Virus record (IMG/VR): IMGVR_UViG_3300035670_000014
Span: 96,001-160,000 of that record
Origin: a virus
Length of the DNA stretch: 64,000 nucleotides
Reading direction: 5' to 3' (one strand)
The notes beneath the pieces are model-generated. The model had not been told where the DNA came from. It did not search any database and was given only the letters and a program-made list of their open reading frames with translations. Position 1 is the stretch's first letter. Each line of letters begins with the position of its first letter. This document shows positions 23,472 to 49,542 of the stretch, one piece after another. The position numbers were made by a program, and so were the translations under genes.

Positions 23472-23539
23472 AAATTAGCTAAATAAAGCCTAAGAAATTG
23501 CCGGAACGGCAATCGGATATTGACTTATATAGCCTCTTA

Positions 23540-31892: not shown

Positions 31893-32318
31893 TTACTTGC
31901 GGCGAGAGGATTTACGAGCACTCGGAGTTTCCTCCTTGATACTTTCGATTGCTGCACTGAGTGCAGTATCTGGTTCCTCCTGTTGAAGGATCGTAACTCC
32001 TCCCTGGGTGGGGAGAATGAAGCACATCTGACTGAATGCAGGAGTACCCTCCTGATTCACGAAGTGCTCCAAGGTGCGGCGACGCAACTGAAGTGAGCCA
32101 GTAACACTGACTCGGGTCGAAACCTGAAGTTCCGAGACTGTCTCGGCACTTGGTTCGTCGATGAGCACGTTGAACACGTTAGGTCCATTCAACTCACGAG
32201 TGTGAGCTGAAGTGGCCACCTGGATTTCGAGTACCTGCTTCCCCGCACGGGTCGCCTTGAGGCGAGGAGCAGCCACGATGTTGCCCTCAATCTGAAACTG
32301 GTTGATGTCTCTTGCCAT
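31893..32318 (-). CDS. ssb: Single-stranded DNA-binding protein-like (OB fold), basic C-terminus
   Basis: INQFQIEGNIVAAPRL, RVSVTGSLQLR. Confidence 0.75.
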   Translation of the reverse strand: MARDINQFQIEGNIVAAPRLKATRAGKQVLEIQVATSAHTRELNGPNVFNVLIDEPSAETVSELQVSTRVSVTGSLQLRRRTLEHFVNQEGTPAFSQMCFILPTQGGVTILQQEEPDTALSAAIESIKEETPSARKSSRRK

Positions 32319-32415
32319 ACAAATCTCCTAATGCTTGCCCCGTATCTGGAAATCAGATACTGATAAGAAAGGCATAATAAAGGCCCCGAAGGGGCCTGGG
32401 TCACAACAGTGGGAT

Positions 32416-32658
32416 TCACCGCGTGTATAACAGATCAGTCGCGAGTTCAAACACTCGGTTAAAGTATTCGAGCTGAGACTGGTTGAGTCTACTATAATTT
32501 GCAATAGTAAACTCCAGAGGATGCGCATCCGGCGTATATTCAATTTCAACATTGAACAACCCAGACTGCAAATCCAGCTTCTTACTCTTGGAAGATAGCA
32601 TGACCCTACATAAGTTGATCACATCTCCCTCTTCAATGAGCTGTTGTATTTTACTCAT
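32416..32658 (-). CDS. hypothetical protein
   Basis: ORF with GAGG RBS. Confidence 0.5.
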   Translation of the reverse strand: MSKIQQLIEEGDVINLCRVMLSSKSKKLDLQSGLFNVEIEYTPDAHPLEFTIANYSRLNQSQLEYFNRVFELATDLLYTR

Positions 32659-33194
32659 CACATCCTCTTGAAAGAAACTTCAGCAACAATCTTGTGATTG
32701 TCGATGAGATCAGGGATTGAGCACAATTTGCCTAAGTCTAACCAAGTCTGAATGTTCCCATTAGGGTCACTTTCAAATCCCAGAATCTCACTAGGACCAC
32801 CCCAAGGAGGAATGGTCCAGGAAGTTACAATGTAACTGTTTCCCTTCTTCCAAAGAAACTGAGATCCCTTGGCATCGGGATTGACCGGCCCAAGAAGTTT
32901 CAACTCACTGAACTTCTCGTTCTGAGTCTTGATCTTGATGATGAACGTCATCTCATTCAAAACATAGTTTTTGAACTTCTGGAAGAACACACACTGTTCA
33001 AACATGTCACTGAATTTGCCATTGATTGCATCAATGACCTCGTACTCGTCCTGAGCGATGAAGACATGAATCTTCTCATACTCAGTGTGGATTGAGATGC
33101 AGTACTCTTTACTTTGAGTACTGTTCCCGAAGCTGTAAGTAGCACCACTCTCAGCTAAAACCTTAGCCGTACAAAAGAAAACATCGTTACTCAT
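32658..33194 (-). CDS. hypothetical protein
   Basis: ORF with AGGAGG RBS downstream of a GAA hairpin. Confidence 0.65.
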   Translation of the reverse strand: MSNDVFFCTAKVLAESGATYSFGNSTQSKEYCISIHTEYEKIHVFIAQDEYEVIDAINGKFSDMFEQCVFFQKFKNYVLNEMTFIIKIKTQNEKFSELKLLGPVNPDAKGSQFLWKKGNSYIVTSWTIPPWGGPSEILGFESDPNGNIQTWLDLGKLCSIPDLIDNHKIVAEVSFKRM

Positions 33195-33358
33195 CTAACC
33201 CTCCTAATCTAAAGTAAAAGGAACCAAGATAAAGGCCCCGAAGGGGCCAAGGTCATTTGTCTCTAATGTCGGAGAGACCCGTGATCAAAAAGCCCCTGAA
33301 CACAGATAACACCAGTATGGTGCACCTGTGCCCAAGGGCATCACGTCCCGAGTGGGAC

Positions 33359-33901
33359 TTAGAACGGCAGGGCCTCGTCTTCCGACGAAGTGGCCACCGG
33401 CTCCGAAGGAGCCGTGGCCTTGCGGCCCGGTCCCCGACGGGCCGGCTGGGCTGCCTCGGTGCCTTGCTTCGCGATCAGCGAAGCAAGGTGGCTGAGTTGC
33501 TCCGGGGTGAAGTTCATTGCTGAACCACCACCTGAACCCGAGCCGCCAGTCGAACCCGACCCACCGCGAGCACGCTCTGCACCGCGGGGATCCAGCGTGA
33601 GCTGGGTCACCTGCATCTTGAGCGCAACGCCGTCCGTCCCGTCCTTACGCTTGAAGGACACGGGCTCCAGCGAAGTAGAGTCCACGGTCAAGAAGTCGCC
33701 CTTGTGGACGTAGCGCTTCACTACGTCTGCGAGCGAGTCGCTGTTGACGTAACAGTCGTGCTGTGTAGCACGAGTCACTTCCACTCCGTTGGCGTCCTTC
33801 CACCGCTTATTGTGGATAAGGCGGAACACCACGGAACCGGAGTCAAGGATCTGAGGGTCTGCTGCAACGTTTCCGGTGACGGAATAATTCTGTCGTGACA
33901 T
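33359..33901 (-). CDS. ssb: Single-stranded DNA-binding protein with acidic PF tail
   Basis: VTGNVAADP, YVHKGD, Gly-rich linker, C-terminal EDEALPF; AGGAGG RBS. Confidence 0.88.
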   Translation of the reverse strand: MSRQNYSVTGNVAADPQILDSGSVVFRLIHNKRWKDANGVEVTRATQHDCYVNSDSLADVVKRYVHKGDFLTVDSTSLEPVSFKRKDGTDGVALKMQVTQLTLDPRGAERARGGSGSTGGSGSGGGSAMNFTPEQLSHLASLIAKQGTEAAQPARRGPGRKATAPSEPVATSSEDEALPF

Positions 33902-34272
33902 GGTGGCACCTCCTGGTGTGTTTGGTAAATGAGCAGGACATGTCAACCTGCTCACCATAAAGGACCCGAAGGGGCCTTGCGCTAGAAGCCTCGGAATGAA
34001 GGCGAAAGGTAGTTGTGTGCACGGCGCTGGGTAATGGACACGGAGCGAGCGAAGCGAGCGGAGTTCGCCGGCTTACAAGAAAGAACTGAGAAAAAAGCCC
34101 CAACTGGGGCTGAGCACCTACTCACGAAGCATTTGCTTGTAGTGAGTAAGTTCTAGCTGGTGGGCGATCTTTATCCGGCGTATCTTGGTTTCCAGCTTGT
34201 CTATGTAGATAGCCAGGCCGGCGTTGCAACCACAGGCAAATACTAAGATGATGTCATACATGAACTGGGGCA

Positions 34273-34765
34273 TCATGACTTCACCAGAGCCATGTCCAGG
34301 AGCCGCTGGACCTTCTGACGATAGACCTGGCGGTCGTAGTCCTCAACTGGAATAGACTGCTGAAGATGAGGCGTGTTGGTCAACTCAAAGACCTGAGCCT
34401 CCAGGTGATTGATTCGCTCAACAAACCTCATCTTCATTTCCCAGATGTACATCCACATGATGATCAACAGGGCAGTCTCAGCAGCGGAAAGGAACATGAG
34501 AAAATTTAAACCAGTATCCATGGCAATCCTCCTGTTTTAGTCCGGCGAAATGCCAGACTTGTCATTATAAAGATCCCGAAGGGATCTTGTGCCCTGTAGC
34601 TTCTTCATTGATCAGACTCGGCCAAGAAGTACGAGCCAGCTGAGCTTCAAGGTTGGCAACTCGGTCAGAGTTGCGCATCTTGAGTTCATAGATGTAAAGC
34701 CAGAGGATCACAACCATTCCGGTCATGAAGGCAGAGAGTGTCATGTAAAAGTAAGTAAAGTCCAT
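34273..34765 (-). CDS. Two paralogous small TM plus coiled-coil proteins (34273-34521, 34565-34765)
   Basis: Shared W.YI.E.KMR...R...LEAQ; each has its own hairpin and leader. Confidence 0.7.
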
Positions 34766-34804
34766 GAGAATCCTCCTGTTTAGTTCAGCGAAATGCTGAA
34801 CGTG

Positions 34805-35062
34805 TCAGGCCAAAGACCCCGAAGGGGTCTGAGTCCCGCAGTAGTTCAAATCATGGTTATTAAGAGTAGAGATCAGAGCCACATAAGACACCTGGATGTC
34901 AAGCCGGGCTCCGTATCCAAATCTTTGCTCGACGTCACGAATGATTCGATGCTCAGCATCACTGCTTGAGCAGCAAACTCTTCCTCTGGCAAGAAAATAC
35001 TCACTCTCTCCAAGTATTGGAGTCTTGAATACTTTAGCTTCGTAGTACCATGGCATTCTCAT
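34805..35062 (-). CDS. hypothetical protein
   Basis: GAGGA RBS, downstream of a GAA hairpin. Confidence 0.6.
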   Translation of the reverse strand: MRMPWYYEAKVFKTPILGESEYFLARGRVCCSSSDAEHRIIRDVEQRFGYGARLDIQVSYVALISTLNNHDLNYCGTQTPSGSLA

Positions 35063-35299
35063 AAGTCCTCCTGTATTTTGGTTTTACTTGGGGTATCCCA
35101 AGTGCAAGATGCAAGTAAAAGATCCCGAAGGGATCTTTGTGCCTTGGAGCTGTTTACTTTTGAGGATAAAGGTCTCTAATGTCGGAGTGCAAGTTTGAAA
35201 AGACGGGGCGTTACGAAAGCCCCTGAACAACGACACTGTTCAATGCGTGCGCCCGCGCTGGTTTTCAGGCCGGCGTACAAAAGTTTAGTCTTCTTCTAG

Positions 35300-35397
35300 A
35301 AAAAAGAAACCCCATAGTGACCAGCTATGGGGGAATTCACTAAGGATACACTAATGTATCAACTCGTGAACTCGGCAGGGAGGGTGTCTGCCTTCTC
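35300..35397 (-). ncRNA. putative ~100-nt ncRNA
   Basis: Lies between the GAA hairpin (35405-35421) and a terminator (35301-35332); stem-loops, no ORF. Confidence 0.45.
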
Positions 35398-35516
35398 ACC
35401 ACATAGTCCCCGAAGGGGACTTGTTCCCTTAGCCAGAGATTATCTGTCTAGTATAAGGGAAATAACTGAAAATGAAAAGCCCCACTAGGGGGCAGAGCGA
35501 GATAGATGATGTTCTT

Positions 35517-35756
35517 CTATTCTGTGATTGAAACAGAATCTTCTGACACCACCGGCTTGATACCCGAGCGACCTTCTACGATCGCCATAAAGCGACCGAG
35601 GAACTGCTCGCTAACACCAAGAGCAGAGATGTACTCTGCTTCAGTGTATTCGACGGTAGCCTCTATCTCCAACTTTAAGGACTTATCCAGAATCCCAGCG
35701 CCAGGGTTAACGAAGGAAGCCGGAACAAGGGCATTGATTCTGAAAGAAGACTTCAC
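35517..35756 (-). CDS. hypothetical protein
   Basis: GTG start after AAGGTG; terminator downstream. Confidence 0.55.
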   Translation of the reverse strand: MKSSFRINALVPASFVNPGAGILDKSLKLEIEATVEYTEAEYISALGVSEQFLGRFMAIVEGRSGIKPVVSEDSVSITE

Positions 35757-35889
35757 TGTTTCACCTTTTAATTGACTGGGGCGAAATTGCCCAGATGGTT
35801 TAATACCCTCGTTGCCATGAGGGCGGAGCCCGATGGTCTGCCTGAGCGAAGCGAACTACGCCGGCGCCAGTTGAAACTCAACTTCCTGC

Positions 35890-36108
35890 TCAATGATAGT
35901 ATGAGAAGTAACTCTCATGGAGCAGTGTGCTGAGGCAGACCAGGGACAATATGGTCGGTGCCCAGAAGAAACCAATCATCATAAAGTGGTCGAAGTTGTT
36001 GATGCTTGAGAAGCCTCGCTTGGCCCCATCAACCTGCTCGTTGGTAAAGCGAACTGTACACATGATTGACAACCACAAGCTAGCAGCAAATGCAAATACC
36101 TGGAACAT
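35890..36108 (-). CDS. small membrane protein
   Basis: Two hydrophobic segments; GAGGTG RBS. Confidence 0.6.
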   Translation of the reverse strand: MFQVFAFAASLWLSIMCTVRFTNEQVDGAKRGFSSINNFDHFMMIGFFWAPTILSLVCLSTLLHESYFSYYH

Positions 36109-36276
36109 AATTCACCTCTAATTTATCAGTAGGAAGAAATAGCCGAAATGGCCGGAGAAAATGCTCGGTCACACTATGGGCCCCGAAGGGGCCCTGGAGC
36201 CTATGTGTCTTGGATGCAGGATAAGAGCTGAAAATGAGAAGCCCCACGAAGGGGCAAGAAAATACCATGGACACAG

Positions 36277-36453
36277 CTAAGCGGGTGTTACGACCACTGG
36301 CTGCATCTGATAGTACCCATAGCCGACTACACCAAGAAGGTAAGCCTCGGCTGACTGCTGTGCCTCCTCCAAAGAGGAGGCTTCAATTGCCCACGTCAAG
36401 ACGAACGGATCGTCCCACGCGGGGCTAAGGTTAAAGTTGGCTCTGAAAAGCAT
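36277..36453 (-). CDS. small hypothetical protein
   Basis: AGGAG RBS; complete hairpin-leader-terminator cassette. Confidence 0.6.
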   Translation of the reverse strand: MLFRANFNLSPAWDDPFVLTWAIEASSLEEAQQSAEAYLLGVVGYGYYQMQPVVVTPA

Positions 36454-36619
36454 GGCAACTCCTGTGGTGCTTTGCACCCGTGTTTGATCCAGGGAATCCC
36501 AGATCTAGTCGACTTATGGGCCCCGAAGGGGCCCTGGAGCCTATATGTCTAAGACTTAGGGTAAAGCTGGAAATGAAAAGCCCCCAGAAGGGGGCAGGCG
36601 GTAGAGTTACCGCAACAGC

Positions 36620-37621
36620 TTAGCGGCCGGTGGCTAGCTTCGCCATTGCAAGCACACCCTCTCGGGTGGCCGCGCCGGCGATGAAGCGTCCAGGGTGACA
36701 GAAGATGGCATCTGCCACTCCAGTCAGAGCCTGAAGCTCCGAGTCACGCTTCGCTGCCCACTCCTCGGGCAGAGGAAGTCGCTTGTCAAACGACCCCTCC
36801 GAGGGAGGAACGCACTGAAGCATCCACTGACCTCTGGGGTCGGGATAGACAACGAAGTCTATCCCTGTGGAGGAGTCAGCGTTAGCAGCGATAACTGGTC
36901 CTTGCCAGGAGCCGCCACGCTCCAGCACCAGCACGGTTTCGCCCTCAGCGAGGGCTTCCTGTGCCAGTTCCAGGATGCGGGCACGATCCAGCTCCGCCTT
37001 CATAGCGGAGCGAATCTCGGCAGCCAGCAGCGTGCCGGCCAACTCGACTGCCCGCTCGAAAGCGGAGTCGAAGTCACCACCGTCCTCGGTGGGGTTCATC
37101 GCGCTGATAGCGCGACTCACCGACCAAACGTTGAGGCCCCGAGGAGCTGCTCCGACGTCTGCAGCGTCCACTGGCTGCACGACCTGTCGGTCGATCAGCT
37201 CCCAGACTGCCTCGGTGGCCGGGTCCGTGGTGTGCCCGCAAACCATGGCGATTGCGGTCCTGCCGAACGCGGCCCATGCCAGCCCGAAGGCTGCATAGGG
37301 AGCACCCTCGGGGGTGCCACCTCGACGGCCAGCAGCGTCCGTAGGCCTCCACTGGTGGTGGTCGAGGTAGTGGAGCGGGCCGGACTGTGCATGGTTGCGC
37401 TGCGTTTCATGACGTCCTCCGACGTCAATGACCGCAATCATGCAGCTGTCCAGGATCTCGGGCTGGCGAGTCCTGACAACAGCCAGACCCTCGCCGCAGT
37501 CAAATGCCAGCGCCGCCACGGCGCAGGCAAACGTCTCGTCTGCGTGGAACACACCATCGTGTGTTCCGATGTGAGCGGGAGCAATTTTGGCTGCAGTTGT
37601 GTCGATGGTATGAATCAGCAT
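36620..37621 (-). CDS. MYG1-family (DHH-like) exonuclease/hydrolase
   Basis: THDGVFHADE, RTR, DVGG, DHHQ, FCHPGRFI. Confidence 0.9.
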   Translation of the reverse strand: MLIHTIDTTAAKIAPAHIGTHDGVFHADETFACAVAALAFDCGEGLAVVRTRQPEILDSCMIAVIDVGGRHETQRNHAQSGPLHYLDHHQWRPTDAAGRRGGTPEGAPYAAFGLAWAAFGRTAIAMVCGHTTDPATEAVWELIDRQVVQPVDAADVGAAPRGLNVWSVSRAISAMNPTEDGGDFDSAFERAVELAGTLLAAEIRSAMKAELDRARILELAQEALAEGETVLVLERGGSWQGPVIAANADSSTGIDFVVYPDPRGQWMLQCVPPSEGSFDKRLPLPEEWAAKRDSELQALTGVADAIFCHPGRFIAGAATREGVLAMAKLATGR

Positions 37622-37767
37622 GACTTCTCCTGTGGCCCAGAGGGCCGGTTTTGACTCGGGGGAGTCCCGAGTCTGGTCGCCTTATGGCACCCGAAGGGTG
37701 CCTGGACTTATAAGTCTCAGATCTAGGCAAGACCTGAGAAAGAAAAAGCCCCTTTCGGGGCGGGGGC

Positions 37768-37986
37768 TCAGGAGCTGGGAAGCCCCGGGAGGTTAATTAA
37801 GTGGGGACGCTCCGTCAACAACCGGAGCGCGGGCTCATCGCCCATACCCGGGCGCAGCACTGCCGCGTAGAGGTCCCTCAGCTTTTCGTAGTGTTTCCAG
37901 GTGTCCATATCGCGGGTTGTCGACGCGATCCACTTTGCATCATGGTAGTTGTTATAGCAAATGCTATGGGCCTCGGCTGCTGTCAT
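37768..37986 (-). CDS. small hypothetical protein
   Basis: GGAGG RBS before MTAAEA; complete cassette. Confidence 0.6.
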   Translation of the reverse strand: MTAAEAHSICYNNYHDAKWIASTTRDMDTWKHYEKLRDLYAAVLRPGMGDEPALRLLTERPHLINLPGLPSS

Positions 37987-38104
37987 AACTCCTCCGGTGG
38001 CGCCATGCGCCGGTTTTTGACTCAGGGAAATCCTGAGTCTGGTCACACTATGGCACCCGAAGGGTGCCTGCAGCCAAAGTCCGTGATATAAGGCAAAAGT
38101 TGAG

Positions 38105-39022
38105 AAATAAAAAACCCCTTTCGGGGTAGTTTACGCTTATTGCAACTCACTTCCGGTTTCATCACCGGCTGGACCCTTCACCTTTACTACCAGCCCTATG
38201 ATAGGGTATAGTTGCGACCGAAAGGTCGCAGCTGGTCGCTTCCGCGCGAATAGCGCCGCAGTCAACTATCCACCGGTTTGCACCCCGATGGTAGTCCTGC
38301 TAATATGAGTCTAGGTGACTCACAATAAGGGACCCGAAGGGTCCCTGCAGCTAAAACAACGTAAGAAAAAAGCCCAATCTTGCGACTGAGCTTAATCCCC
38401 ACCTTCGGTGTATGTTTCGTGGTCTCATCACTCCAACCGCCACTTTCAGCGGGCCTTGGCAGGCGACGTGTTTCGGTTGTTCCTTGCCTAAGGGAAGCCT
38501 AGGTCATAATCTTGACCAATAGAAAAACCCCGAAGGGGTGCATGTCTTTATAAGAAAAATACCCAACCTGCAGATTGAGTAAATTTCCGAAGAGTGGCCA
38601 CTCTTCTACCCGAATACCAGAGCCTCTGGTGTTCCCCTCGGGTCAGGGGGGCTTTGACATGCCAAAATTATTCTCCCCAAGTTGTCAGCTTGGGGACCCA
38701 GTTGTCGCTGGGATGGGGACTTCGCTCCCTGGGGTGACAGCCTCCCCTTGGGTTCGTATGCACGGTATCAGCGTGCTTAGATACGAAGAACATACCATGG
38801 TACCCGAAGGGTACCTGCAGTAAAAGCGGCGTATACAAATCTTTTCTTCTAGAAAAAAATACCCGCCTAGCGGAGTTCCAATAGTCAAACTATAAGTCTA
38901 ACTACAAAGGAAAAGAGAACCCCTGCTCGCACCGCCACCTCCAATGGGAGATGACAGACACGACAGGGGGAGGTTCGCTGCGCTAGACTAGGCAGGCCTC
39001 ATGTGGCGGGGGGACCACACTC
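38105..39022 (-). ncRNA. Four tandem ORF-less structured transcription units (~38105-38321, 38365-38517, 38553-38791, 38852-39022)
   Basis: Each starts after a GAA hairpin and ends in a hairpin plus U-tract; dense stem-loops. Confidence 0.6.
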
Positions 39023-39125
39023 ACAAGAAGGCACCCGAAGGGTGCCTGCAAGTGTGTCCGAATGTCCGGCCGGCAGGGTGTCCGGCAGGGTGTGCGGAGC
39101 CCGCGAAGCGGGCAAGCTAGCGGAG

Positions 39126-42100
39126 TTATTCCTTGAAGAACTTCTCCACGTACTTCTTGGCCGCAAGCTTGACTTTTGGCAGATTTGCAACCTTACACAG
39201 AAGCTGGCCAAGGTGATTCTCACCTTTACCCTTACACTTACCCCAGAAGGTATCACCCCAGTGGTTATTTTCCACAGGAGTAACTTTGCCGCCCGAAGTT
39301 GCAGCGTAAAGGCGAAAAGCCAAATACATTCCTTCTGGAGTATCTGCTTGGTCAGCAAACTTAGACTCCAGGATGCAGTACATGACATCTAACCTTAAAG
39401 CCTCCCAGGTTGCCATTGCATCAGGTGAAGAAGGCTTAAAGTCCTTAGCCTTCTTCTTTGCCGTGTACCCGTTGTCAGTAGGAAGAATAGTGTTTTCTTC
39501 TTGATTGAGAATATTACACTTAATCCACTGATACAAGGTCTCACTTGAGGCAAAGACAACACCATCTGCCACTACGGAGCACGGATACATGTTAGACATA
39601 AACTCAAAGTCCTTAGACTTAAAGTTATCAGTCTCACTGATTACCAGTTGTCCATAGTGGCTCTTTCGAGCTGAAGGCTCGTGCTCGGTCGACTTATTTG
39701 CCAGCTTCAACAAGATGTCACCGTGACACTTCTTGGGTGCACACCAGCACACTAAGTCCTTGCCTTTCAATTCATGCAAAGATTTCATGAGTTCTGGTTG
39801 TTGTACTACCCAGTCAGCGTACTTCTCCACAGCTTCGTCTCGCGTCTGACACTTCCACTTGGCTGATGTTTCAGCCTGGTGGCTAAATGGATTACCCCAC
39901 TTAGTAGGGCGTCCAATGTAGACTGCGGTTTCGGGAGCCGTGTTGGCATGCTTGTTGTGCACCACTGGCAAGCCAGGAGGAGTCGGAGGCGTGTCATTAA
40001 CAACACCAACCAAAGACACATGACGAGCATTCTTCTTGCCCAAGGCAAGATACTTGTCATAGGTGTCCTTAACACCTCCAATTGGTCCGTTCTCCCCAAA
40101 GGTAAAGGCAATCAAGAAGTCCGAATCTTCCGCAATCAGAGTATTGCGATCAAACAGGCCCTTGATCTCTCCACTCTGGAAAGTTACCTGGTGCCGCTCA
40201 TCCCGAGGATCATTCCAGTAGGTATTAACCATTGCCTGGATGTCCTCAAGAGACCAGGACTGGCTTTCGCCGTCAGTCATGGCAAGGCTAAACTGCCGGT
40301 GATACTTATTCATGGCATCACCTGCGTCGTTTGCCTCTTTGACAGTAAAGGCATTATTCTCAAACTCAGCACCAAGGTGCAAAGTAAGAGCTTCAACCTC
40401 TGCGCCCATGAGGAGGGATATTGCAACATGGTCAGACCAAGCCGCACCTCCACTGACAAGACGAATCGCCTCGGCACCAGTTGCAGCCTTAATTGCTGCA
40501 ACAGCCTTCTTGGTGCGCTCAACCATGAACAAGAAATGTTCTTTGGTCAAGTTCTCACCGCGGCCAGCGGTGCCAATAACACCCAGAGTCACCGTCTTCT
40601 CAGGCAAACGGTAGTAGCCGTCGATGTCCTCGGTGCGATTATCGCCATCGCCGTCAAAAGTGACGACATAACGACTCTCATCGTTCCCAAGGAAGCTGAT
40701 ACCAGAGTAACCAGCTGCCTTCACTCGTGTGAAGAAGGCGTTGCTGTTGTCCCCTGGATTCAGCAGGTCGAACGGCTTACCAGTCTCCCGGTAGTGCTCA
40801 GACCGCAGCTGCTCGTAGGCCGCCCTTCCATCCTTGGACAGTCTAACCAAGAAGTTGGTAAGGTCAACCTTACGGGAGTCAATCTGACTTCCATAGGTCT
40901 TTGCCTCCTCCTTGTCCTCGGTCCAGTACTGGAATTCACGTCCATCGCTCCTACCATGAAGACCCTGATAGACAGTGACCTCAGCAGCAACTTCTGGTTC
41001 GACTTCTACTTCTGCTGGCCCTGGCTCAGGATCAGAGCCACTACAGAAGTCAAGAGACAGCTGATAGCGGTAGGAGTGACAGCCACTTCCATCTTCATCT
41101 CCGTAGAACCAGAACAAAAGAGGCTCTGAGAAATGGTGCAGGAAGTGCTCCATGAAAGCTTCATCCATGTCCCCTTGTTCCTCGAAGTACCCTACCTCAA
41201 TGTAGAGGCCAGTATAGCCTCTCTTCTTGAGGTACAGGAAGAATTCACCATCAGACTTCAGGTCCTCAATGAAGTCTTCACGAGTCTGCAGTGACTTAAC
41301 ATCAAGGCAGTACTCGATGTGGATCTTGAGGAGCTGACGAAGGCTGCTGGGCGACTCAATGACCAGCATAGCCGACCTATCAAAGACTCTATAGTCTCCG
41401 ACGCCTGCCATGGAAGCTTGACTAGCAAGCCAGGTCGAGAAGTCCTCTTCCTCTTCCTCATCCCCCTCGTAGTACTTAGACGCAAGGATAAGGTTTGGAT
41501 CAGGATCTGTAAATGGATGCCTATAAGTAGGCACTTCCACTTCAGGTTCCGCCTTCACCTCAGTCTTGATCTCGACTACCTCAGACTCGACAACCTCAGG
41601 CTTAGCCTCGACAACTTCAGCCTCGATCACCTCACTGTAAGTGAAGTCCTCGACTGCCACATCTTCGAGACCATCGAAGTCGTAGTTGTCGAAGTCCACA
41701 TCAGTGTGATAGCCGATGGGGCCTGAGGTGTAGTCCACCTGCTCAACCGAAGGAGCGAACTCCGACAGGTCCAGCTTGCCGAGAGGAGAAACCTCGCCCT
41801 CAAATGCAACCGTGACCTTAAAGGTCGGGTGCAGAACCTGCACCGCTGGGTTGCTTGCCTTGGTATTCCCGGTCACATCAGTTTCGATGCTGATGACACG
41901 GTACTTGTCAAGGCCCTTGTGGGAGATAAACTCCTCAAGCAGCTCGGGGGTGACGACCTTCGTGTCTTTGAAGAAATCCCTGAAGGCCGTGTTGATCAAG
42001 GTTGTAGCACCCCTCTCAACCCTCAGCTTGCCAAGGAAATTCTCACCCTTGGTCTTGAGGATTCCACCACGCAGAACGTCACTCAGAAGCTGACCAACAA

Positions 42101-45100
42101 CCTCAGAGTTGATCTGAGAAGCAACCTCAGAATCAAGCACGAAGGCATCGCCAAACTCTGACTTCCGCTTGACCATCGGGGTCTTGATGTCAAGTCCCAA
42201 CTCAGCCACGTCAGGCCCCTTGCCATTGATGAAGGCAAAGTAGGCCTTCCCGAAGTCCTTATACTCGTCGTTAAACGAGAAACCAAGGACAACGGTGCTC
42301 TGAGGAGCGGAAGCGCCCAGGACATTCAGGGCCTTGAGCGAGTAGACCCAAGGACCCTCAGGCAGGCCGTCAGCAGACATGACCGGCGTCCCGTCCTCAT
42401 TCAGGTAGTTGCCCACATACAGAGTGTGGATGGGCAGCTTGTCAACCTGAATTGAACCGAAGCTCCGGCGGCCGCTCTTGATGAACTGCTCGCAGGAAAG
42501 CGCCCGCTCAGGATTGGCCTGGTCAGTCTTGAACGCGTTCGCACGCTTGACCAGCTGGAGGAAGGTCCAGAGGGCAAAGCGCAGCTTGCCAGACTCATTC
42601 CAGGCATGCCACTCCTTGAGCCAGGCCTGCTCGACAGCTGCCCTTGCACGGATTCGGCTCTTCTTGTCAAGAGGAAGAGCTTCAACCTGGGCAATCTTGT
42701 CGAATCGACCCCTGTTCAAGCGAGAGCAGAAGTCTGCAAAACCTGCAATCTCTGCCTCGTGGGTGCCAAGGGCAGCCTCAAGCTGAAGCCAGGGTGACTC
42801 CTCAAGAGTCTGCTCGACCTGCTCGAAGGCGATCCGCAACACGGAATCCTTGTACTTCTCGAACAAGTCAAAGACCCATGAAGTAGCACGCTCAACCTTC
42901 ACGTTCTTGAACGCAAAGTGCAGTGCCTTGATGCCCTGACCGGTCGCAGCATCACCCTCCTGAAGGAGCTGACTCTGCCCAGCAAAAGGAGCCGCAAAGG
43001 CCGCAATGCCACGCTTCATCAGCCAGCCAGGGAAGTAGAACTTCATCTGGCTTGCAGGCAGCATGTGCATGCTGTACGAGACGGTAGTTTCACCCTCGTA
43101 CTTTTCGACCTTCTTGCTCGGGTCGCCGAACAGAGCAAGGCCCATGTACATGGAAACAGACCAGATCATCTGCATGACCTTTACTGCCTCCGGCACATTC
43201 TGACCCTGAGTGTCGGCGTCGATGACGTTCGACAGCATCTCTGACATGGTCAGCAAGATGAGGTCGAGGTAGGTCAAGGACTTCCACTCACCGTTCGGGT
43301 CAAGGCCATCAGACTCAATTACTGACCTGACGTTTGCCCTGAGGTTAAACTTGTCACCAAAGTGAACAAGCCCCTGCATGATGGCACCCATCAGCATCTG
43401 CACGTTAGCTGCAGTACCAGTGGTGCCCTTCATGTTCTCCAGTGCAAAGATTGCACTGTCGACCCTCTCCAGAGGAGAGCTGAACACCCGGAGGTTGCCG
43501 CTCGTGTCAAGTGCACCCTCGGTGAAGTACCTCTCGGCAAACTGCAGCTTCGCCATGTTCATGATGAACGCAGTCAAGCCGACTGGGATAGTCGAAGGGG
43601 GAAGCTTGGCATTCGTTTTACCTTCTGCCTGCTTCCTATTCCTCCGCTCCTCAGCCTTCAGGTGAGCGTTGTTCAGCTCCTTGAGGACGAAGTCGTTGGC
43701 TGCCCTGTCTCCAACAAGGTCACGAACCAAAGCCTCGTCGTCTCCGCCAAAGCCAAAGGAGTACCAGCCTTTGAAGTCAAAGCGGGTATCCAGTGCCATG
43801 TGCCGGAACTGACCGACCTGAGAGTTCAGGAAGTCAAGAGCCACCTTCCTCTTCTCCTCGCCGGGAGTCATGGCAATAATGGCCTGCTTCTTGCGCTCCT
43901 GGAAGCGGATGCAAGACTTGGCCAAGTCGCCGTGAATCTCCGCCATCCGGTCGTCAAGGTCTGCACCGTCCTGTGCCTTGAAGAAGATTTCAAAGGCCTC
44001 AGGAGTTGGCATGACCCAGCGGCACCCGACTGGCACCGAGTCCATTGGGACAAGGATACCCCATGCTCCCGACTTGAAAGTCGAAGGGTTCCGGTAATAG
44101 AACACCAACGGGGAGCCATGCAGACCCATGATCCGGTTGTAATCTGCAGTGTTGCAGAAAATAACCCGGTTGTAATCATAGGTCAAGCCAAGTGGCTTGA
44201 GGTGATTCTCGACCAGAGACTTAATCTGCTCCTCAGATACTGCATTCTTATATGCAGACCAAAGAGCCTTCGTCTCGTCCTTGACGTTGAGCTTCATCAC
44301 CTCAGCTACGGCCTCAAACATCAGGCCAGGGTGCACCTGCGGATACACCGACTCAGCGATCTTGGTATACACCATCTCGCCGTTGGCGTTTGGCATCTTC
44401 AATGCCAAGGGCAGTCGGGTCCTTGCAGGGTCCATTGCCTGATTGGTGAGCTGGTTCATGATTGGCGCTACCAGCTGAGGCAGAGGAATGCCGTTCCCAA
44501 TCACCTTAGCAGTCCCACCGAGGACCTCCTTGAGGCGGCTCGCAGCGAGGAGTGCGTCAGCAACGCCTTCAGGCTCTGACTCATCCCCATCCATGAGGTC
44601 GGTGAAGATCTCAGAGTCAAGCTCTGACATTTCGTTCTTCACTCTCAGGTTGGAGAGAATCTCCTCAAGGCGGGTCGTTGCATCCTCTTCAATCTTCTTG
44701 AAGATGTCAATGACCGCCGGATCCCTCAGGTCAAACCCGTTGATCAGGCTCTGAGTGTCAGTGCAGACACCCTTACGAGCCTTCGGGACACCCGAGTTCA
44801 GGATGATCGTAGCTCGATCATCTGACCAGGTGGGGCAGATTTCACCCTTTGACCCGTAGGCAATCATGTCCTTCCCAGTAGCCTTCATGAACTCTGGAGA
44901 CATGATGTGGAAGCCACCCTTCACCATGAAGTTGGTGAAGTAGGCTCGGCCAATGAGGATCTTCCCATCGAGCTTGCCTGCCTTGAGGTCAGCCAGATAG
45001 TCCTGAGGCAGCACGAGAGCCATGAGGCGGCGAGAGACAAACACCACGCCGTCATAGATCTCATCGGCAAGCATTGCTGCCTTAGCCTTCTCGAACAGGC

Positions 45101-46136
45101 TGTCACCGTTAACTGGCTTGACGACCAGGACAGAGTCCTTAAGAGCATTAAGCTTGAAGGTCTGCCCTTCCAGCTTGTAGCTCTTATTGAACTCAACGAC
45201 CTTGCCACGGAGCAAGTTCGGCGCAAAGTACTGAGAAATGTACTTCTGCGCCTTCGCTGCAGCCTGCACCTGCTTCGCCGGTGAGCCGTCCTCTTTGACC
45301 TTCACTCCATAGACGCAAGAAGCAAGCTTCATTGCTTCGTCGTCAGTTGCCTTAGACAAGGCATCATTGGTCAAGTTGAGGAACAAGCAGGTGGGGTTGA
45401 CATCGGGAGTCTTATCAATTCCCTTGTCGCTCTCCTCCCAGGTCTCCCCAGCGGCCTCAGCTGCCTTCCGCTTCAACTCCCTGAGCTGCTTCTTCTCAGC
45501 CTTCTTGGAGGCCTCGATTCGTCGCTCATAGAGTGAGTCCATCGAGTCTTTGCTGAGAGCATTGACCAGAGAGGTCCTGGCAGCAACCTCGACCTGCTCG
45601 GACCCATAGTTGGTCTGAATCAGGTTGAGTGTTGCCCATGCCTGAGCAAGCTCGCCCGCAGTCAGGTGGCGCAGGTCGCCGTGCTTCTTCAGACAGTCAA
45701 GCGCTCGCTTGACCGTGAAGTAGAAGTCAATGCTTGCGCCTGAGCTTGGAGCCCGGTGCAGGTGATGCAAAGACTTCTGCCAGACATTGACGTCGCCAGG
45801 CTTCACGTTAAACGGCTTAAAGCCGTAAAACTTCTCAAAAGCGGCCATGATTTCTGCCGTCTTCTGAGCATACGGTGCCATGGAGTCAACGTGGACCTTG
45901 TAGGCCACCTTGGCATCTTTCTCGTCAAATCCTGGCCAGTTGAAAAGCTCAGGAGACGTCAGGTTGAGTCCAACCTTATGCCCAAGCAGAACACGGATCA
46001 TTGCCACTGCCGCAGGCAATACGAGGGACTTGTAGTCTTCCTCGTTGCAGCGGATAGCCTCGATGTTCTCAGACTTCAGCGTCTTGAAGAGTTCGAGTGC
46101 CTGGTCATTGGCTACTTCTACTTTCACTTCGCTCAT
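39126..46136 (-). CDS. Two-barrel single-chain RNA polymerase (YonO/QDE-1-like) fused to ART-like, SLOG, DUF4326 and NADAR domains
   Basis: YDGVVFVSRRL, GR...VKG, YRNP, DGADLDD, TGTAAN, SNVIDADTQG; C-terminal GRPTKWGNPF/CWCAPKKCHGD and SN.Y..ENNHWGDTFWG..GENHLG; AGGAGG RBS before ATG 46136. Confidence 0.75.
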   Translation of the reverse strand: MSEVKVEVANDQALELFKTLKSENIEAIRCNEEDYKSLVLPAAVAMIRVLLGHKVGLNLTSPELFNWPGFDEKDAKVAYKVHVDSMAPYAQKTAEIMAAFEKFYGFKPFNVKPGDVNVWQKSLHHLHRAPSSGASIDFYFTVKRALDCLKKHGDLRHLTAGELAQAWATLNLIQTNYGSEQVEVAARTSLVNALSKDSMDSLYERRIEASKKAEKKQLRELKRKAAEAAGETWEESDKGIDKTPDVNPTCLFLNLTNDALSKATDDEAMKLASCVYGVKVKEDGSPAKQVQAAAKAQKYISQYFAPNLLRGKVVEFNKSYKLEGQTFKLNALKDSVLVVKPVNGDSLFEKAKAAMLADEIYDGVVFVSRRLMALVLPQDYLADLKAGKLDGKILIGRAYFTNFMVKGGFHIMSPEFMKATGKDMIAYGSKGEICPTWSDDRATIILNSGVPKARKGVCTDTQSLINGFDLRDPAVIDIFKKIEEDATTRLEEILSNLRVKNEMSELDSEIFTDLMDGDESEPEGVADALLAASRLKEVLGGTAKVIGNGIPLPQLVAPIMNQLTNQAMDPARTRLPLALKMPNANGEMVYTKIAESVYPQVHPGLMFEAVAEVMKLNVKDETKALWSAYKNAVSEEQIKSLVENHLKPLGLTYDYNRVIFCNTADYNRIMGLHGSPLVFYYRNPSTFKSGAWGILVPMDSVPVGCRWVMPTPEAFEIFFKAQDGADLDDRMAEIHGDLAKSCIRFQERKKQAIIAMTPGEEKRKVALDFLNSQVGQFRHMALDTRFDFKGWYSFGFGGDDEALVRDLVGDRAANDFVLKELNNAHLKAEERRNRKQAEGKTNAKLPPSTIPVGLTAFIMNMAKLQFAERYFTEGALDTSGNLRVFSSPLERVDSAIFALENMKGTTGTAANVQMLMGAIMQGLVHFGDKFNLRANVRSVIESDGLDPNGEWKSLTYLDLILLTMSEMLSNVIDADTQGQNVPEAVKVMQMIWSVSMYMGLALFGDPSKKVEKYEGETTVSYSMHMLPASQMKFYFPGWLMKRGIAAFAAPFAGQSQLLQEGDAATGQGIKALHFAFKNVKVERATSWVFDLFEKYKDSVLRIAFEQVEQTLEESPWLQLEAALGTHEAEIAGFADFCSRLNRGRFDKIAQVEALPLDKKSRIRARAAVEQAWLKEWHAWNESGKLRFALWTFLQLVKRANAFKTDQANPERALSCEQFIKSGRRSFGSIQVDKLPIHTLYVGNYLNEDGTPVMSADGLPEGPWVYSLKALNVLGASAPQSTVVLGFSFNDEYKDFGKAYFAFINGKGPDVAELGLDIKTPMVKRKSEFGDAFVLDSEVASQINSEVVGQLLSDVLRGGILKTKGENFLGKLRVERGATTLINTAFRDFFKDTKVVTPELLEEFISHKGLDKYRVISIETDVTGNTKASNPAVQVLHPTFKVTVAFEGEVSPLGKLDLSEFAPSVEQVDYTSGPIGYHTDVDFDNYDFDGLEDVAVEDFTYSEVIEAEVVEAKPEVVESEVVEIKTEVKAEPEVEVPTYRHPFTDPDPNLILASKYYEGDEEEEEDFSTWLASQASMAGVGDYRVFDRSAMLVIESPSSLRQLLKIHIEYCLDVKSLQTREDFIEDLKSDGEFFLYLKKRGYTGLYIEVGYFEEQGDMDEAFMEHFLHHFSEPLLFWFYGDEDGSGCHSYRYQLSLDFCSGSDPEPGPAEVEVEPEVAAEVTVYQGLHGRSDGREFQYWTEDKEEAKTYGSQIDSRKVDLTNFLVRLSKDGRAAYEQLRSEHYRETGKPFDLLNPGDNSNAFFTRVKAAGYSGISFLGNDESRYVVTFDGDGDNRTEDIDGYYRLPEKTVTLGVIGTAGRGENLTKEHFLFMVERTKKAVAAIKAATGAEAIRLVSGGAAWSDHVAISLLMGAEVEALTLHLGAEFENNAFTVKEANDAGDAMNKYHRQFSLAMTDGESQSWSLEDIQAMVNTYWNDPRDERHQVTFQSGEIKGLFDRNTLIAEDSDFLIAFTFGENGPIGGVKDTYDKYLALGKKNARHVSLVGVVNDTPPTPPGLPVVHNKHANTAPETAVYIGRPTKWGNPFSHQAETSAKWKCQTRDEAVEKYADWVVQQPELMKSLHELKGKDLVCWCAPKKCHGDILLKLANKSTEHEPSARKSHYGQLVISETDNFKSKDFEFMSNMYPCSVVADGVVFASSETLYQWIKCNILNQEENTILPTDNGYTAKKKAKDFKPSSPDAMATWEALRLDVMYCILESKFADQADTPEGMYLAFRLYAATSGGKVTPVENNHWGDTFWGKCKGKGENHLGQLLCKVANLPKVKLAAKKYVEKFFKE

Positions 46137-46219
46137 GAGACCCTCCTGGTCTACGTGGGGTTGGTTCCCCTGGTCATTTGCATCCGGCAGACTATCTGCC
46201 TTTTGCACAGTAATAATTG

Positions 46220-46954
46220 TCATGACTTGGCCTTAGGCTCGGCTAAGCAGGGTGACTGCAAACCCTCCGAAGGAGGGTCGGGCCATGCTTGCTCTGTATC
46301 CAGAGCAAGGTAAGCAGCCTCGGCAGCTGCCTGCTCCTCAAGCTGGCAGTCGTGCATCCACTGGTCGAACATTGCCTGAGACCAAGCAAGCTCGTCATCA
46401 TCAGTGAAGTGCCTAGACCTGTCCGCTGCAGCAGGTACTTGCTCGACCCACTTCTCCAAAGCTCGTTCCAGTTCCCATCGCTGGAATTCCAGGTTTGGCC
46501 AGTCATTGCCAAGGAACAGGGAACAGCCCATGGCCGAGGGCAAGCTGGCCATAGAGAAGACCTCAGCCTCCTCCTCAACATGCCACTGATCGTAGCTGTT
46601 AATGGCTTGAGCCCAGCGGATTCGGACCCCGCAGCTCAGAACCTGCCCTTTTTCCTGAGCCTGAGCCCACTCGATCTGCTCTCGCAGCTCCGAGTAGTAC
46701 TCATCCCAGTCGTGCATGGTAGCGTAAGATACGCCACCCACTGCAACCTCAGTGTTGAGGCTGTAGAAGTGCGAATCCTGACGCAACATCTCTGCCGCGA
46801 CCTCGGCTGCTTCCTCAGTAGTTTCCCACTGAGCAAGGAGATCAGGGCACTCGTCCGCCTTACTGGCCTTGAACTTACCCACAATCATAGAGATCATAAG
46901 CTTAAAGTATTTCATTTTATTACCCTCGTGTTGTTTGGTTTGCTGGTTGAGCAA
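46220..46954 (-). CDS. acidic hypothetical protein
   Basis: ORF; likely start MKYFK at 46915 after GAGG. Confidence 0.6.
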   Translation of the reverse strand: MLNQQTKQHEGNKMKYFKLMISMIVGKFKASKADECPDLLAQWETTEEAAEVAAEMLRQDSHFYSLNTEVAVGGVSYATMHDWDEYYSELREQIEWAQAQEKGQVLSCGVRIRWAQAINSYDQWHVEEEAEVFSMASLPSAMGCSLFLGNDWPNLEFQRWELERALEKWVEQVPAAADRSRHFTDDDELAWSQAMFDQWMHDCQLEEQAAAEAAYLALDTEQAWPDPPSEGLQSPCLAEPKAKS

Positions 46955-46965
46955 AGACTGGCTGC

Positions 46966-48420
46966 TTATGCAGCCTTCTTTGCGTAGCGGGCCAGGACAT
47001 CCGCAAACTTAAAGTTTGCGCTGCCTCCGACCTTGCTGGCTGCTGCCCAGTCTTCAGTGAGCGTAAGGTCCATGAAGACCTCCGACTCCTGGCTGGCCAG
47101 CCAAGCCTGGCGCTTTGCTTCGCGCTCAAGCTCCTTGATGGTGCGGCGGTGAGCCGCAGCCTTCTGGTTCATGACCAGTCGGTAGCCACGGAAGCTCAGA
47201 ACCCGCAGGTTCTTTGGCCCGGTGATGCTGTCCGTCGTCATTGCCCAGACGAGCCTTTCGATCTGCTCGTTGATGCAGGCAATGTCGCTTCGCAGCGATT
47301 CGGTCGCCAGGAAAGCTGCCTTCTTGGGAAGGCGGGTGAAGGCCTGCGTGACCTTCTCCTGCACTTCTGCGCGGCTAGCCAACAGGCTTCCAATCTTGGC
47401 CATCACGACGGCCACAATCGACCGGCGGCGAGCAGCGAGGGCCTTAGCGGCCTTGATCTGTGCCTCGGTCTGGACCTGACGCCAGGCCGGGGCAGCTGCT
47501 GCTGCCTTTGCGGCCGCCTTGCCCTTGCGGGTCATGGCAGCGCGCTGAGCCGGAGTGGTCTCCGGTGCAGTAACAACGTGTGCCCAGCGAGCGCGGGCAG
47601 GAGCCTTCGGAGCAGTTGCCACTGCCTTGGGTGCCAGCACGTCGCTGGCGATGAGGCGAGCACGACTAGCCGTGCTGACCTTCTTAGCCATGGTGGCCCG
47701 CTCTGCAAGAGAGCAGGCTTCCCAGAAGCCAAGAAAACTGAAGATGGCCTTGACGAAGGCCTTCTCAGCTGCACGCTGAGTGCGTGCAGCAAGCTTTGCC
47801 TCAGCGCGGGCTTGCGCCTTTGCTGCAGCGGGGCTGACGGTAGCCTGGGAGTCCAGGTCGCCGGTCGAGGTGCTGTGGTCAGCGTGCTTCGATCGGTCCA
47901 TGATGACCAAAGGAAGCACACGAAGGGGTGCCGGGGCCGCCGGTACGGTGGCCTTCCGGCCGTAGATGTTTTCGCGGACCGCAATCCGGTCCGCATTGGC
48001 AAGCACCTTAAGTGCCGCCAATGAAGGAATAAGGTTTGCCACGGTAACCTCCTTGCTCATAGAGCATTTGATGCCAACTAAACGCCCAACAACGGGCTGA
48101 TTAGCTTTCTCTGTGGCAGAGAAATGACCACTATGGTCAAGGCAATAGTCGACTGGGATTTGAACCCCATTAACTCCACAGTTGGAGCTATCAACTTTGG
48201 GCCAAGTGCAAGGCCCAATGGTATCTGTCTGGCACTTCAAACAATTGCCGCTCGTTGCCAAAGTGGCATCCTGTGAGCGGGTTGAGCAGAAGCCCATGCT
48301 GGTCAGGCACTGGAGGAGAAAGACCGAGGCTTGACCAGAGCCTCGGTTTGCCCAGTTGCCCTGGGCGGGGGCGCAGCCAAGGGTGGCTGCCACCGCGAGA
48401 ATGATCTCGCAGGTGTTCAT
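46966..48420 (-). CDS. Ala/Lys/Arg-rich basic hypothetical protein
   Basis: Long ORF; start uncertain (48420 with GGAGG, or 48060). Confidence 0.55.
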   Translation of the reverse strand: MNTCEIILAVAATLGCAPAQGNWANRGSGQASVFLLQCLTSMGFCSTRSQDATLATSGNCLKCQTDTIGPCTWPKVDSSNCGVNGVQIPVDYCLDHSGHFSATEKANQPVVGRLVGIKCSMSKEVTVANLIPSLAALKVLANADRIAVRENIYGRKATVPAAPAPLRVLPLVIMDRSKHADHSTSTGDLDSQATVSPAAAKAQARAEAKLAARTQRAAEKAFVKAIFSFLGFWEACSLAERATMAKKVSTASRARLIASDVLAPKAVATAPKAPARARWAHVVTAPETTPAQRAAMTRKGKAAAKAAAAAPAWRQVQTEAQIKAAKALAARRRSIVAVVMAKIGSLLASRAEVQEKVTQAFTRLPKKAAFLATESLRSDIACINEQIERLVWAMTTDSITGPKNLRVLSFRGYRLVMNQKAAAHRRTIKELEREAKRQAWLASQESEVFMDLTLTEDWAAASKVGGSANFKFADVLARYAKKAA

Positions 48421-48707
48421 GATCACTTATTACCTCCAAGGGTAAATGAAGTTTAGGAGTAGCAGCAGGATTGCTACTATCCAGGGCTAGGATCACGGCC
48501 CAAGACCAAAGTGTCATGTCTTTGACACTATGGGTCTCATATTAAATGAAAAAAGAATGGAATACATCTTCTAGAAGAAGAATGAACTCCAATTCCCCGC
48601 GAAGATAAATGCCAATGGCAAATGTCTCCTGTGAGATTATAAGTCTCATATTAAATAAAAAAGGAATGGAAATTAATCCATTCCTTCCCCCTGACCTCAC
48701 CTAAGCG

Positions 48708-48854
48708 TTATTCAACGCAAAGGCGGGTCAGTTCATCAGGCGGGCAGTGGTGGTTGTACTCCTGCGCGTTCCACACATGCAGCGCGATAGCTGCAGCGAG
48801 AACCACCAGGAAAAATACCACCGTTACCAACCGATCGACAAACACCTTGTCCAT
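48708..48854 (-). CDS. small membrane peptide
   Basis: GGAGG RBS, one TM segment. Confidence 0.55.
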   Translation of the reverse strand: MDKVFVDRLVTVVFFLVVLAAAIALHVWNAQEYNHHCPPDELTRLCVE

Positions 48855-48978
48855 AACTCCTCCGATGGTTAACCTATACACCATAAGGTAAGGGATTAAC
48901 AGAGAATGAGACGACATGTCTCATTCCCCATGAAAAAAGAATGCAACCAGGCCGAAGCCTGGCTGCATTCTTCAAACT

Positions 48979-49416: not shown

Positions 49417-49542
49417 GAGCGAAACTCCCGACTAGTACCTACTAGCCTTAATGGGATGGATAGGAAATGAGACAGAATGTCTCATTCCCCATGAAAAAAG
49501 AATGCAACCAGGCCGAAGCCTGGCTGCATTCTTCAATCTTCC

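Follow-up and report, generated by a model that had tools for sequence, protein, structure and literature searches.

The virus record IMGVR_UViG_3300035670_000014, from an uncultured phage, is complete (170,948 bp, with direct terminal repeats), and its bases 96,001-160,000 were analysed here; this stretch of 64,000 nucleotides is referred to as the window, and positions are those of the window unless marked as genome positions. The analysis concerns a family of short hairpins with a GAA loop on the template strand (class-1 elements), together with the gene of a 2365-aa protein, P0001, which lies next to their densest cluster and whose core is predicted to adopt the fold of a two-barrel RNA polymerase (RNAP). 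A rough gene map shows a plus-strand block running from 147.1 kb across the genome ends to 57.4 kb, which contains the large terminase and three giant proteins (1613, 2019, and 2798 aa), and a minus-strand block extending from 146.6 kb down to 57.7 kb, with genes for proteins that bind single-stranded DNA (SSBs), a primase-helicase, a DNA polymerase, and small early proteins. The layout follows the order class-2 cassettes (described below), polymerase gene, class-1 hairpins, sigma factor gene, and late block. The elements were compared with those of four related contigs (L005, L009, L010, and L012) and with a distant contig from groundwater (L011) that carries a polymerase of the P0007 family.

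A class-1 element consists of a 5-9 bp stem, a GAA loop on the template strand and, on the sense strand, T at +10 followed by T-G at +15/+16, positions being counted on the sense (minus) strand from the loop centre. The catalogue comprises the following elements:

39020..39048, minus strand: centre 39038, AGGCACCC-TTC-GGGTGCCT, with T+10, T+15, and G+16; first element after the polymerase gene
38789..38817, minus strand: centre 38807, GGTACCC-TTC-GGGTACC
38515..38543, minus strand: centre 38533, 5-bp stem, starting about 12 nt past the T-run of a terminator
38319..38347, minus strand: centre 38337, AGGGACCC-TTC-GGGTCCCT
38042..38070, minus strand: centre 38060, G+16 lying 58 nt ahead of an ATG linked to a ribosome-binding site (RBS)
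37676..37704, minus strand: centre 37694, upstream of a 333-aa gene (MYG1-like in relatives)
36508..36536, minus strand: centre 36526
36168..36196, minus strand: centre 36186
35395..35423, minus strand: centre 35413
35110..35138, minus strand: centre 35128, 9-bp stem
34804..34832, minus strand: centre 34822
34561..34589, minus strand: centre 34579, followed by TATAAT-G
33951..33979, minus strand: centre 33969, preceding SSB gene 1; a C.T stem mismatch is kept in all relatives
33223..33251, minus strand: centre 33241, preceding a 178-aa gene
32371..32399, minus strand: centre 32389, preceding SSB gene 2
29626..29654, minus strand: centre 29644, with an AT-richer stem (AAACAACC)
23487..23515, minus strand: centre 23505, G+16 lying 17 nt ahead of tRNA-Met and tRNA-Leu
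15395..15423, minus strand: centre 15413
10814..10842, minus strand: centre 10832, AGAAGGT-TTC-ACCTTCT
6525..6699, minus strand: two elements, centres 6543 and 6689, with ATTTCGC stems
genome 95247 and 88488, outside the window: candidate elements with stems of 6 and 7 bp
genome 87647 (inside a called gene) and 79108, outside the window: candidate elements with 5-bp stems

The original prediction, made from the sequence of the window, had proposed 21 such loop centres. A plus-strand GAA was found at all of them, and the base counts given there were reproduced exactly on the sense strand (T+10 in 21/21, T+15 in 17/21, and G+16 in 20/21). Stems of 5-9 bp, as had been described, were found at 20 of the centres, the stem at 33969 being made of 3 bp, the C.T mismatch, and 4 bp. 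As a list of promoter-like elements it required corrections. The element at 10832 had been missed, and the hairpin at 46270, which lacks G+16, was dropped from the promoters, given that the relatives have coding sequence there (codons SPSFGG of an uninterrupted 3002-aa orthologue). The GAA hairpins at 49476, 49787, and 50216 were also rejected as class-1 elements; they are part of another cassette, their box differs, and the loop in relatives is ATGTC. Two further TTC-loop hairpins on the minus strand have no downstream box, one at 39,096-39,116, located 20 nt past the polymerase stop codon, and the other at 33,396-33,416, within an SSB gene and kept in relatives.

Hairpins were counted over the whole genome without selecting on downstream bases. 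Among perfect stems of at least 6 bp, which amounted to 170 hairpins for all 64 triloops summed, the plus-strand GAA triloop was found 32 times and the next triloop (AGA) 11 times. The reverse orientation (TTC on plus) was found 4 times, revealing the strand bias for which a genome-wide scan had been proposed. The 32 GAA hairpins carried T+10 in 27 cases, T+15 in 20, G+16 in 23, and A+11 in 13. When stems of at least 5 bp were considered in the genome and three relatives, T+10 together with G+16 was present in 52 out of 82 sense-TTC hairpins and in no more than two hairpins of every other loop. The near confinement of these bases to TTC-loop hairpins indicates that the signal is loop specific and asymmetric. 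A strand-specific purine loop of the GNA type on the template strand was therefore found, as in the hairpin promoters of phage N4.

The bases T+10 to T+15 can also be viewed as a -10-like hexamer, and the elements would then be promoters for the host RNAP, acting with the host primary sigma factor or with a phage protein of the sigma-70 family, the inverted repeat being a spacer or upstream determinant (activator site, cruciform, or read-through insulator). Roughly half of the elements in the dense cluster do read TAnnnT, TATAAT and TATTAT included. A precedent for such an arrangement is found in T4 middle promoters, which consist of a -10 element and an activator box. The phage also encodes a candidate partner, and its presence makes a role of the host polymerase at the elements possible:

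genome 65,554-66,549, minus strand: sigma-70-family protein, 331 aa (PF04542 region 2, 1.7e-19; phrog_351, 7.5e-39)

Region 2 is recognised in this protein and region 4 was not detectable, a combination that would suit promoters without a -35 element. Against this explanation, A+11, which is equivalent to the A at -11, occurs in just 13/32 elements and T+15 in 20/32, no -35 hexamer or TG extension was seen in the aligned elements, and consensus sigma-70-type sites are not enriched in the early region (8 observed vs 9.5 expected). On sequence grounds, the downstream box is a poor sigma-70 -10 element. The stem sequences vary freely, which fits a structure rather than a protein operator, and the asymmetric loop is invariant. 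The sigma gene lies some 62 kb past the dense cluster, where the minus-strand block ends, and the small number of late intergenic regions carry a different, TATAG-like box, although these sites are too few for certainty. Stem-loops and early promoters are also repeated together between small early genes in the PeSL cassettes of T4-type phages, which resemble the present elements in being short and repeated and in combining a stem-loop with a promoter. PeSL promoters are, however, of the sigma-70 type with -35 and -10 elements, whereas here no -35 was seen, the A at -11 is poorly conserved, and the loop is invariant and strand-specific. Moreover, an extruded hairpin in the spacer abolished an Escherichia coli promoter (PMC4496689). 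Taking both sides together, we regard host-RNAP promoters as unlikely, with a modest chance of being the correct explanation.

Covariation was assessed in 64 distinct elements picked only by the loop, three inner pairs, and T+10/G+16. Cells of the 7-pair helix were paired in 94.2% of cases vs 65.2% after shuffling, 120 cells were changed on both sides (28.8 in shuffled sets), and the covariation score was 0.75, compared with at most 0.18 when partners were slid. In a separate set of 65 elements, pair 5 was Watson-Crick in 64, with all four pair types represented. Compensated changes were also detected between orthologous elements. The element at 39038 is identical in L009 and compensated in L005 and L010 (GCACCT/AGGTGC, from GCACCC), and the orthologue of 38807 in L005 is ACATCCT/AGGATGT, with several compensated pairs. 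Both the covariation and the orthologous compensations bear out the earlier claim that it is structure and not sequence that is conserved, and the pairing of an inverted repeat with free sequence is again that of N4-type promoters.

Loop and spacing are preserved in the four related contigs. L012, whose polymerase is 33% identical, carries nine such hairpins with unchanged T+10/T+15/G+16 spacing and quite different stems (GATGAA, GAGGAG, GGTGAA, GGTAGA). All contigs with a polymerase orthologue of at least 33% identity carry the elements, which begin directly after the polymerase gene.

The distribution of the elements is highly uneven. Directly downstream of the 2365-aa gene, a stretch of 6.7 kb contains fifteen of them; some ten others are spread across the next 56 kb of the minus-strand block, and the genome-wide hairpin scan found none in the late plus-strand block. 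Units of the dense cluster are built in a constant order, namely a terminator with a long T-run, the hairpin, T+10...G+16-A-C, a structured leader with covarying hairpins of its own, RBS, and ATG. Terminator stems are separated from the loop centre downstream by 27-66 nt, and one T-run ends about 12 nt before the stem, therefore leaving no space for another promoter. The distance from G+16 to the RBS-linked start is 31-58 nt in 9 dense units, and the loop-to-start-codon distance is likewise about 50 nt in L012. This placement is that of promoters. It agrees with the earlier description of elements after terminators and before open reading frames (ORFs) and a pair of tRNAs, and the two SSB genes that had been noted behind elements were recognised as such:

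33359..33901, minus strand: SSB gene 1 (phrog_44, 2.3e-10; PF00436 in orthologues)
31893..32318, minus strand: SSB gene 2 (phrog_44, 1.2e-06; PF00436 in the L005 and L010 orthologues)

Two stretches of the cluster present additional features. Between 38,105 and 39,022 on the minus strand there are four class-1 units with terminators and no convincing ORF, which show 84-85% identity to L009 and are possible small non-coding RNAs; Rfam gave no match for them. In one cassette subfamily, located between 36,100 and 38,140 (minus strand), the leaders contain a pair of RNA hairpins, after which come AAAA and the RBS. These hairpins covary across paralogues and orthologues, as in GACTCGGG/CCCGAGTC vs GGTTTGAG/CTCAAACC, and in the same subfamily a AGACATATAGG box is found upstream of the class-1 hairpin at a variable distance.

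The same inverted repeats could act at the level of RNA. In this explanation, a sense-strand hairpin (C-UUC-G) would be a weak terminator or 3'-end stabiliser, a 5' protective stem-loop, or a processing or protein-binding site, and the actual promoter would lie elsewhere, for instance at the AGACATATAGG box, which is conserved ahead of one cassette subfamily. Among outer-pair G.T wobbles, 15 fit the sense strand, where they are compatible with G.U pairing, and 3 the template strand. TTT(A/T) follows many elements, a terminator scan flagged two of them, and some are located 14-41 nt past a stop codon with no other terminator. On the other side, canonical terminators with long T-runs already lie just upstream of many elements, and eight motif-bearing elements lack any U-tract, the stem being followed by ATAG, ATAA, ATGG, or ATGT. 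T+10 and G+16 are fixed from the loop whatever the stem length, and these bases have no role in intrinsic termination. The AGACATATAGG box is shifted by 18 nt in L005 and L010, whereas the spacing between hairpin and downstream box is constant. Stems of 5-9 bp are, in addition, too short for RNase III. DNA mini-hairpins of the GCGNAGC type, of which C-GAA-G is the core, are unusually stable (PMC13037366), and UUC RNA triloops have no special stability of this kind. A function at the level of RNA is considered quite unlikely.

As for the active strand, the evidence is mixed. The template-strand hairpin is favoured by its C-GAA-G core, by the GNA type that its loop has in common with N4 promoters, and by one orthologue that retains a wobble only the template strand can form. 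The lean of the outer wobbles would favour an RNA or non-template hairpin, or else reflect the run of T in the box behind short stems. The element may also have two functions, weakly terminating the RNA of the gene before it and serving as DNA promoter of the gene after it.

The protein encoded next to the dense cluster was analysed through its fold. The relevant features are:

39126..46223, minus strand: P0001 gene, 2365 aa, with an alternative RBS-linked start at 46136
42264..45266, minus strand: predicted two-barrel (QDE-1-like) RNAP core, P0001 residues 320-1320, from the AlphaFold (AF2) model and fold matches
43950..43970, minus strand: acidic loop D752-G-A-D-L-D-D758, with D755, D757, and D758 invariant in 12 family members
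39189..39947, minus strand: DUF4326 and NADAR domains at the P0001 C-terminus (PF14216, 3.8e-24; PF08719, 4.2e-07, the latter below the Pfam cut-off)
46220..48426, minus strand: two ORFs of 486 and 244 aa, equivalent to the N-terminal part of a single 3002-aa orthologue and containing the 46270 hairpin

The AF2 model of residues 320-1320, built on 12 sequences, reached a pLDDT of 73.8 and a pTM of 0.73. Foldseek ranked QDE-1 first (E 8.6e-07), followed by P32 gp64, P74 gp62, RDR2, and P23-45 gp96. In VIA-align, QDE-1 scored highest (Z 16.5, with an rmsd of 4.7 A across 457 residues), ahead of RDR2 (16.1), P32 gp64 and P74 gp62 (both 11.9), and the two crystal forms of P23-45 gp96 (10.6/10.5), the next unrelated double-psi barrel (DPBB) proteins scoring about 8. 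The overall fold of the modelled core is that of single-chain DPBB RNAPs of the QDE-1/YonO/gp64 class. Since QDE-1, RDR2, and the phage polymerases score above unrelated barrels, the P0001 core is, as judged from the model, a QDE-1-like two-barrel RNAP. The fold match (QDE-1 Z 16.5) upholds the two-barrel assignment that had been guessed from the sequence. This identity was invisible to searches of Pfam, PHROGs, PDB sequences, PDB family profiles, and the ESM Atlas, and was found by the fold search alone.

An exhaustive HMMER search retrieved a group of orthologues together with a protein family whose members measure about 1100-1260 aa, and the motifs R..KGG, TRxPxT, and QDGADLDD are common to them. 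R..KGG(F) shows little or no variation across the family (R107, K116, G117, and G118 in alignment numbering), and it may correspond to the beta-like R...KG motif of the second barrel. In the sequence Q-D-G-A-D-L-D-D-R, the third Asp is one position off with respect to canonical DxDGD; the D752-D758 loop is put forward as a candidate, non-canonical metal-binding or catalytic loop. The C-terminal domain matches the NADAR structures 2b3w and 8bau, and the DUF4326/NADAR region points to a putative ADP-ribose-related chemistry. The stretch 39,126-48,426 (minus strand) contains three ORFs here, where relatives (P0003, P0004) have a single one of about 3000 aa, and these long orthologues have N-terminal membrane-like segments.

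The region upstream of the polymerase operon contains elements of another type:

48430..50300, minus strand: class-2 region, very well conserved, with four cassettes and two units made of a terminator, ATGAGAC, and TATAAT or TATAGT, as candidate pre-early promoters

Class-2 cassettes (about 110 nt, four copies at 48,900-50,300 on the minus strand) comprise a terminator with a UUCG loop, a GAATGAGAC-loop-GTCTCATTC hairpin, a structured leader, GGGAG, and the ATG of a small gene. The hairpin loop is TTC in three copies and ATGTC in the fourth copy and in relatives. Some 220 nt of non-coding sequence between 48,430 and 48,700 (minus strand) recur at 90% identity in L005 and L009, a conservation above that of the flanking genes; this stretch holds the two terminator/ATGAGAC units, directly before the polymerase operon, which are candidate pre-early promoters.

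On this basis, we put at about an even chance that class-1 elements are promoters of early/middle transcription units used by a phage-encoded single-chain two-barrel RNAP. The enzyme reading them is most likely the QDE-1-like protein encoded at 39126-46223, next to the densest cluster. In the proposed mechanism, negative supercoiling would extrude the inverted repeat, and the template-strand arm would fold into a C-GAA-G mini-hairpin, with assistance from the early SSBs. The polymerase would recognise the loop and the stem junction, and transcription would start at a fixed distance, near G+16. The polymerase operon would probably be activated through a class-2 cassette, the enzyme being an injected one or that of the host. 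The presence of a phage sigma factor suggests that the host polymerase probably has a part in the programme; the simplest place for it is the late block, whose genes would probably be transcribed by the host enzyme with the phage sigma factor.

An injected enzyme could also be the reader of class-1 promoters themselves, as occurs in N4. A candidate virion two-barrel polymerase could be encoded between two giant proteins of the structural block:

genome 13,449-19,508, plus strand: P0002, 2019 aa, with TRFPTITG...SD(R/D/F)DGD

Its TRFPTITG and SD(R/D/F)DGD motifs (TRxPT and DxDGD) are kept in four homologues and resemble NRAPTLH and NADFDGD of the beta-prime subunit, and the gene lies among structural-block giants, as polymerase genes do in crAss-like phages and P23-45. 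The fold prediction, by contrast, failed (AF2 pLDDT 31, an unusable model), hhalign detected no profile similarity between P0002 and the P0001 family, and no match was found in PDB, Pfam, PHROG, or the Atlas. Moreover, at least 25 elements over 56 kb suit a newly made enzyme more than a few injected molecules, the elements begin only downstream of the P0001 gene, and a different cassette precedes that gene. P0002 rather than P0001 as the reader is thus given a slim chance.

A close parallel to the class-1 elements is provided by the early promoters P1-P3 of N4 (Schitoviridae), which are read by the virion RNAP gp50. As here, they consist of a short inverted repeat with a 3-nt GNA loop on the template strand, with stems of 5-7 bp in N4 (PMC4496689). 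In both systems, stem identity is free as long as the stem is paired, downstream bases stand at a fixed distance, the elements lie in the early region, and SSB is part of the setting, as a dependence in N4 and as two genes in the cluster here. The N4 hairpin requires just 5 pairs. N4 hairpin promoters need supercoiling and SSB, and their GNA loop contains a sheared G.A pair (PMC4496689). The genome layout described above likewise recalls the three-enzyme programme of N4 (PMC4496689). In contrast, N4 has three promoters at one genome end and not at least 25 over 56 kb, its loop centre is at -11 whereas here a distance of 16 nt separates loop centre and conserved G, and its enzyme has a T7-like fold, while the polymerase found here is of the two-barrel type. 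A T7-like virion polymerase was also sought, and no PHROG polymerase match was obtained among the large ORFs tested.

Single-chain two-barrel enzymes are known in phages related to P23-45, including the tape-measure-fused virion polymerase gp96 and non-virion gp64 of P23-45, P32 gp64, and P74 gp62, which are structural neighbours of P0001 (Z 10.5-11.9). P0001 differs from them in being nearer to QDE-1/RDR2 (Z about 16), far larger, and equipped with DUF4326 and NADAR domains. In P23-45, a second phage polymerase is expressed from pre-early promoters and then acts on promoters of another class (PMC10770324). This cascade from virion to non-virion polymerase matches the layout from class-2 cassettes to polymerase gene to class-1 elements. 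The promoters proposed for P23-45 are, however, AT-rich and GC-rich linear motifs, and hairpins are unmentioned.

The crAss-like phage phi14:2 provides another comparison. Its gp66 and QDE-1, which share the QDE-1-like fold with P0001, prefer single-stranded DNA templates, and QDE-1 requires RPA, a single-strand-binding complex (bioRxiv 10.1101/2020.03.07.982082). A preference for single-stranded DNA is a setting in which a hairpin promoter makes sense. No common motif was found upstream of gp66-dependent early transcripts of phi14:2 (bioRxiv 10.1101/2020.03.07.982082). The two phage enzymes differ in that gp66 is packaged in the virion and has DFDID, whereas P0001 is encoded in the early region and has ADLDD; gp66 (6VR4) was not among the listed structural matches of the P0001 core.

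The literature search found hairpin promoters only for N4-like phages with T7-like virion polymerases and none described for the two-barrel RNAP class, in agreement with what the original prediction had stated. It is a tentative proposal, somewhat below an even chance, that class-1 elements are the first promoter class for a QDE-1-like two-barrel RNAP, in which a C-GAA-G DNA mini-hairpin on the template strand would be recognised in an N4-like manner by an unrelated fold, through convergence. As regards the pairing of hairpin promoters with a two-barrel reader, the element and the fold stand as had been predicted, and the connection between them goes as far as plausibility.

Several observations weigh against promoters read by P0001. 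Apart from the TAnnnT hexamers, the phage sigma factor, and the lean of outer wobbles towards the sense strand, nearest-neighbour DNA folding gives energies that fail to discriminate between the hairpins of the template and sense strands. Of the 21 elements originally proposed, many are paralogous cassettes and not independent events. The departure of ADLDD from DxDGD makes the activity of P0001 less than certain. Finally, L011, with its distant P0007-family polymerase, showed no TTC hairpins and no enrichment, and its promoters, if any, appear to be of another kind. The gene order of this contig (58% GC) is otherwise alike, with small genes, a polymerase-family protein, and SSBs.

Promoters of single-chain two-barrel phage RNAPs are almost unknown; no early motif could be found for phi14:2, only linear motifs are proposed for P23-45, and the phi14:2 enzyme is active in vitro solely on single-stranded DNA. 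A covarying hairpin-plus-box next to a polymerase gene offers a concrete template of about 30 nt for in vitro testing. If the proposal is true, two polymerase folds without a common origin would each have acquired DNA-hairpin promoters on their own, and SSB-rich early regions would be linked to transcription. It would also provide a pattern with which the early genes of many large uncultured phages could be sought, and suggest how crAss-like polymerases that prefer single-stranded DNA and the ancestors of RNAi polymerases locate their start sites.

Most of the phage proteins are without a match in PHROG. GenBank phages, searched by megablast with the region, likewise gave none, a scan of viral contigs with the P0001-family alignment found no relative, and a word-indexed profile search returned the query alone. 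PF00623, PF00562, and the crAss capsid family had no match in the genome; the same was true of PF00940, a result that is uninformative, since the control also matched nowhere. Rfam found nothing beyond a tRNA over 28-52 kb of the window. Where the early and late blocks diverge, the intergenic sequence contains three spaced copies of AAAAATGTRGATRRGDGGGT (50,740-50,930), which could be origin iterons or regulator sites.

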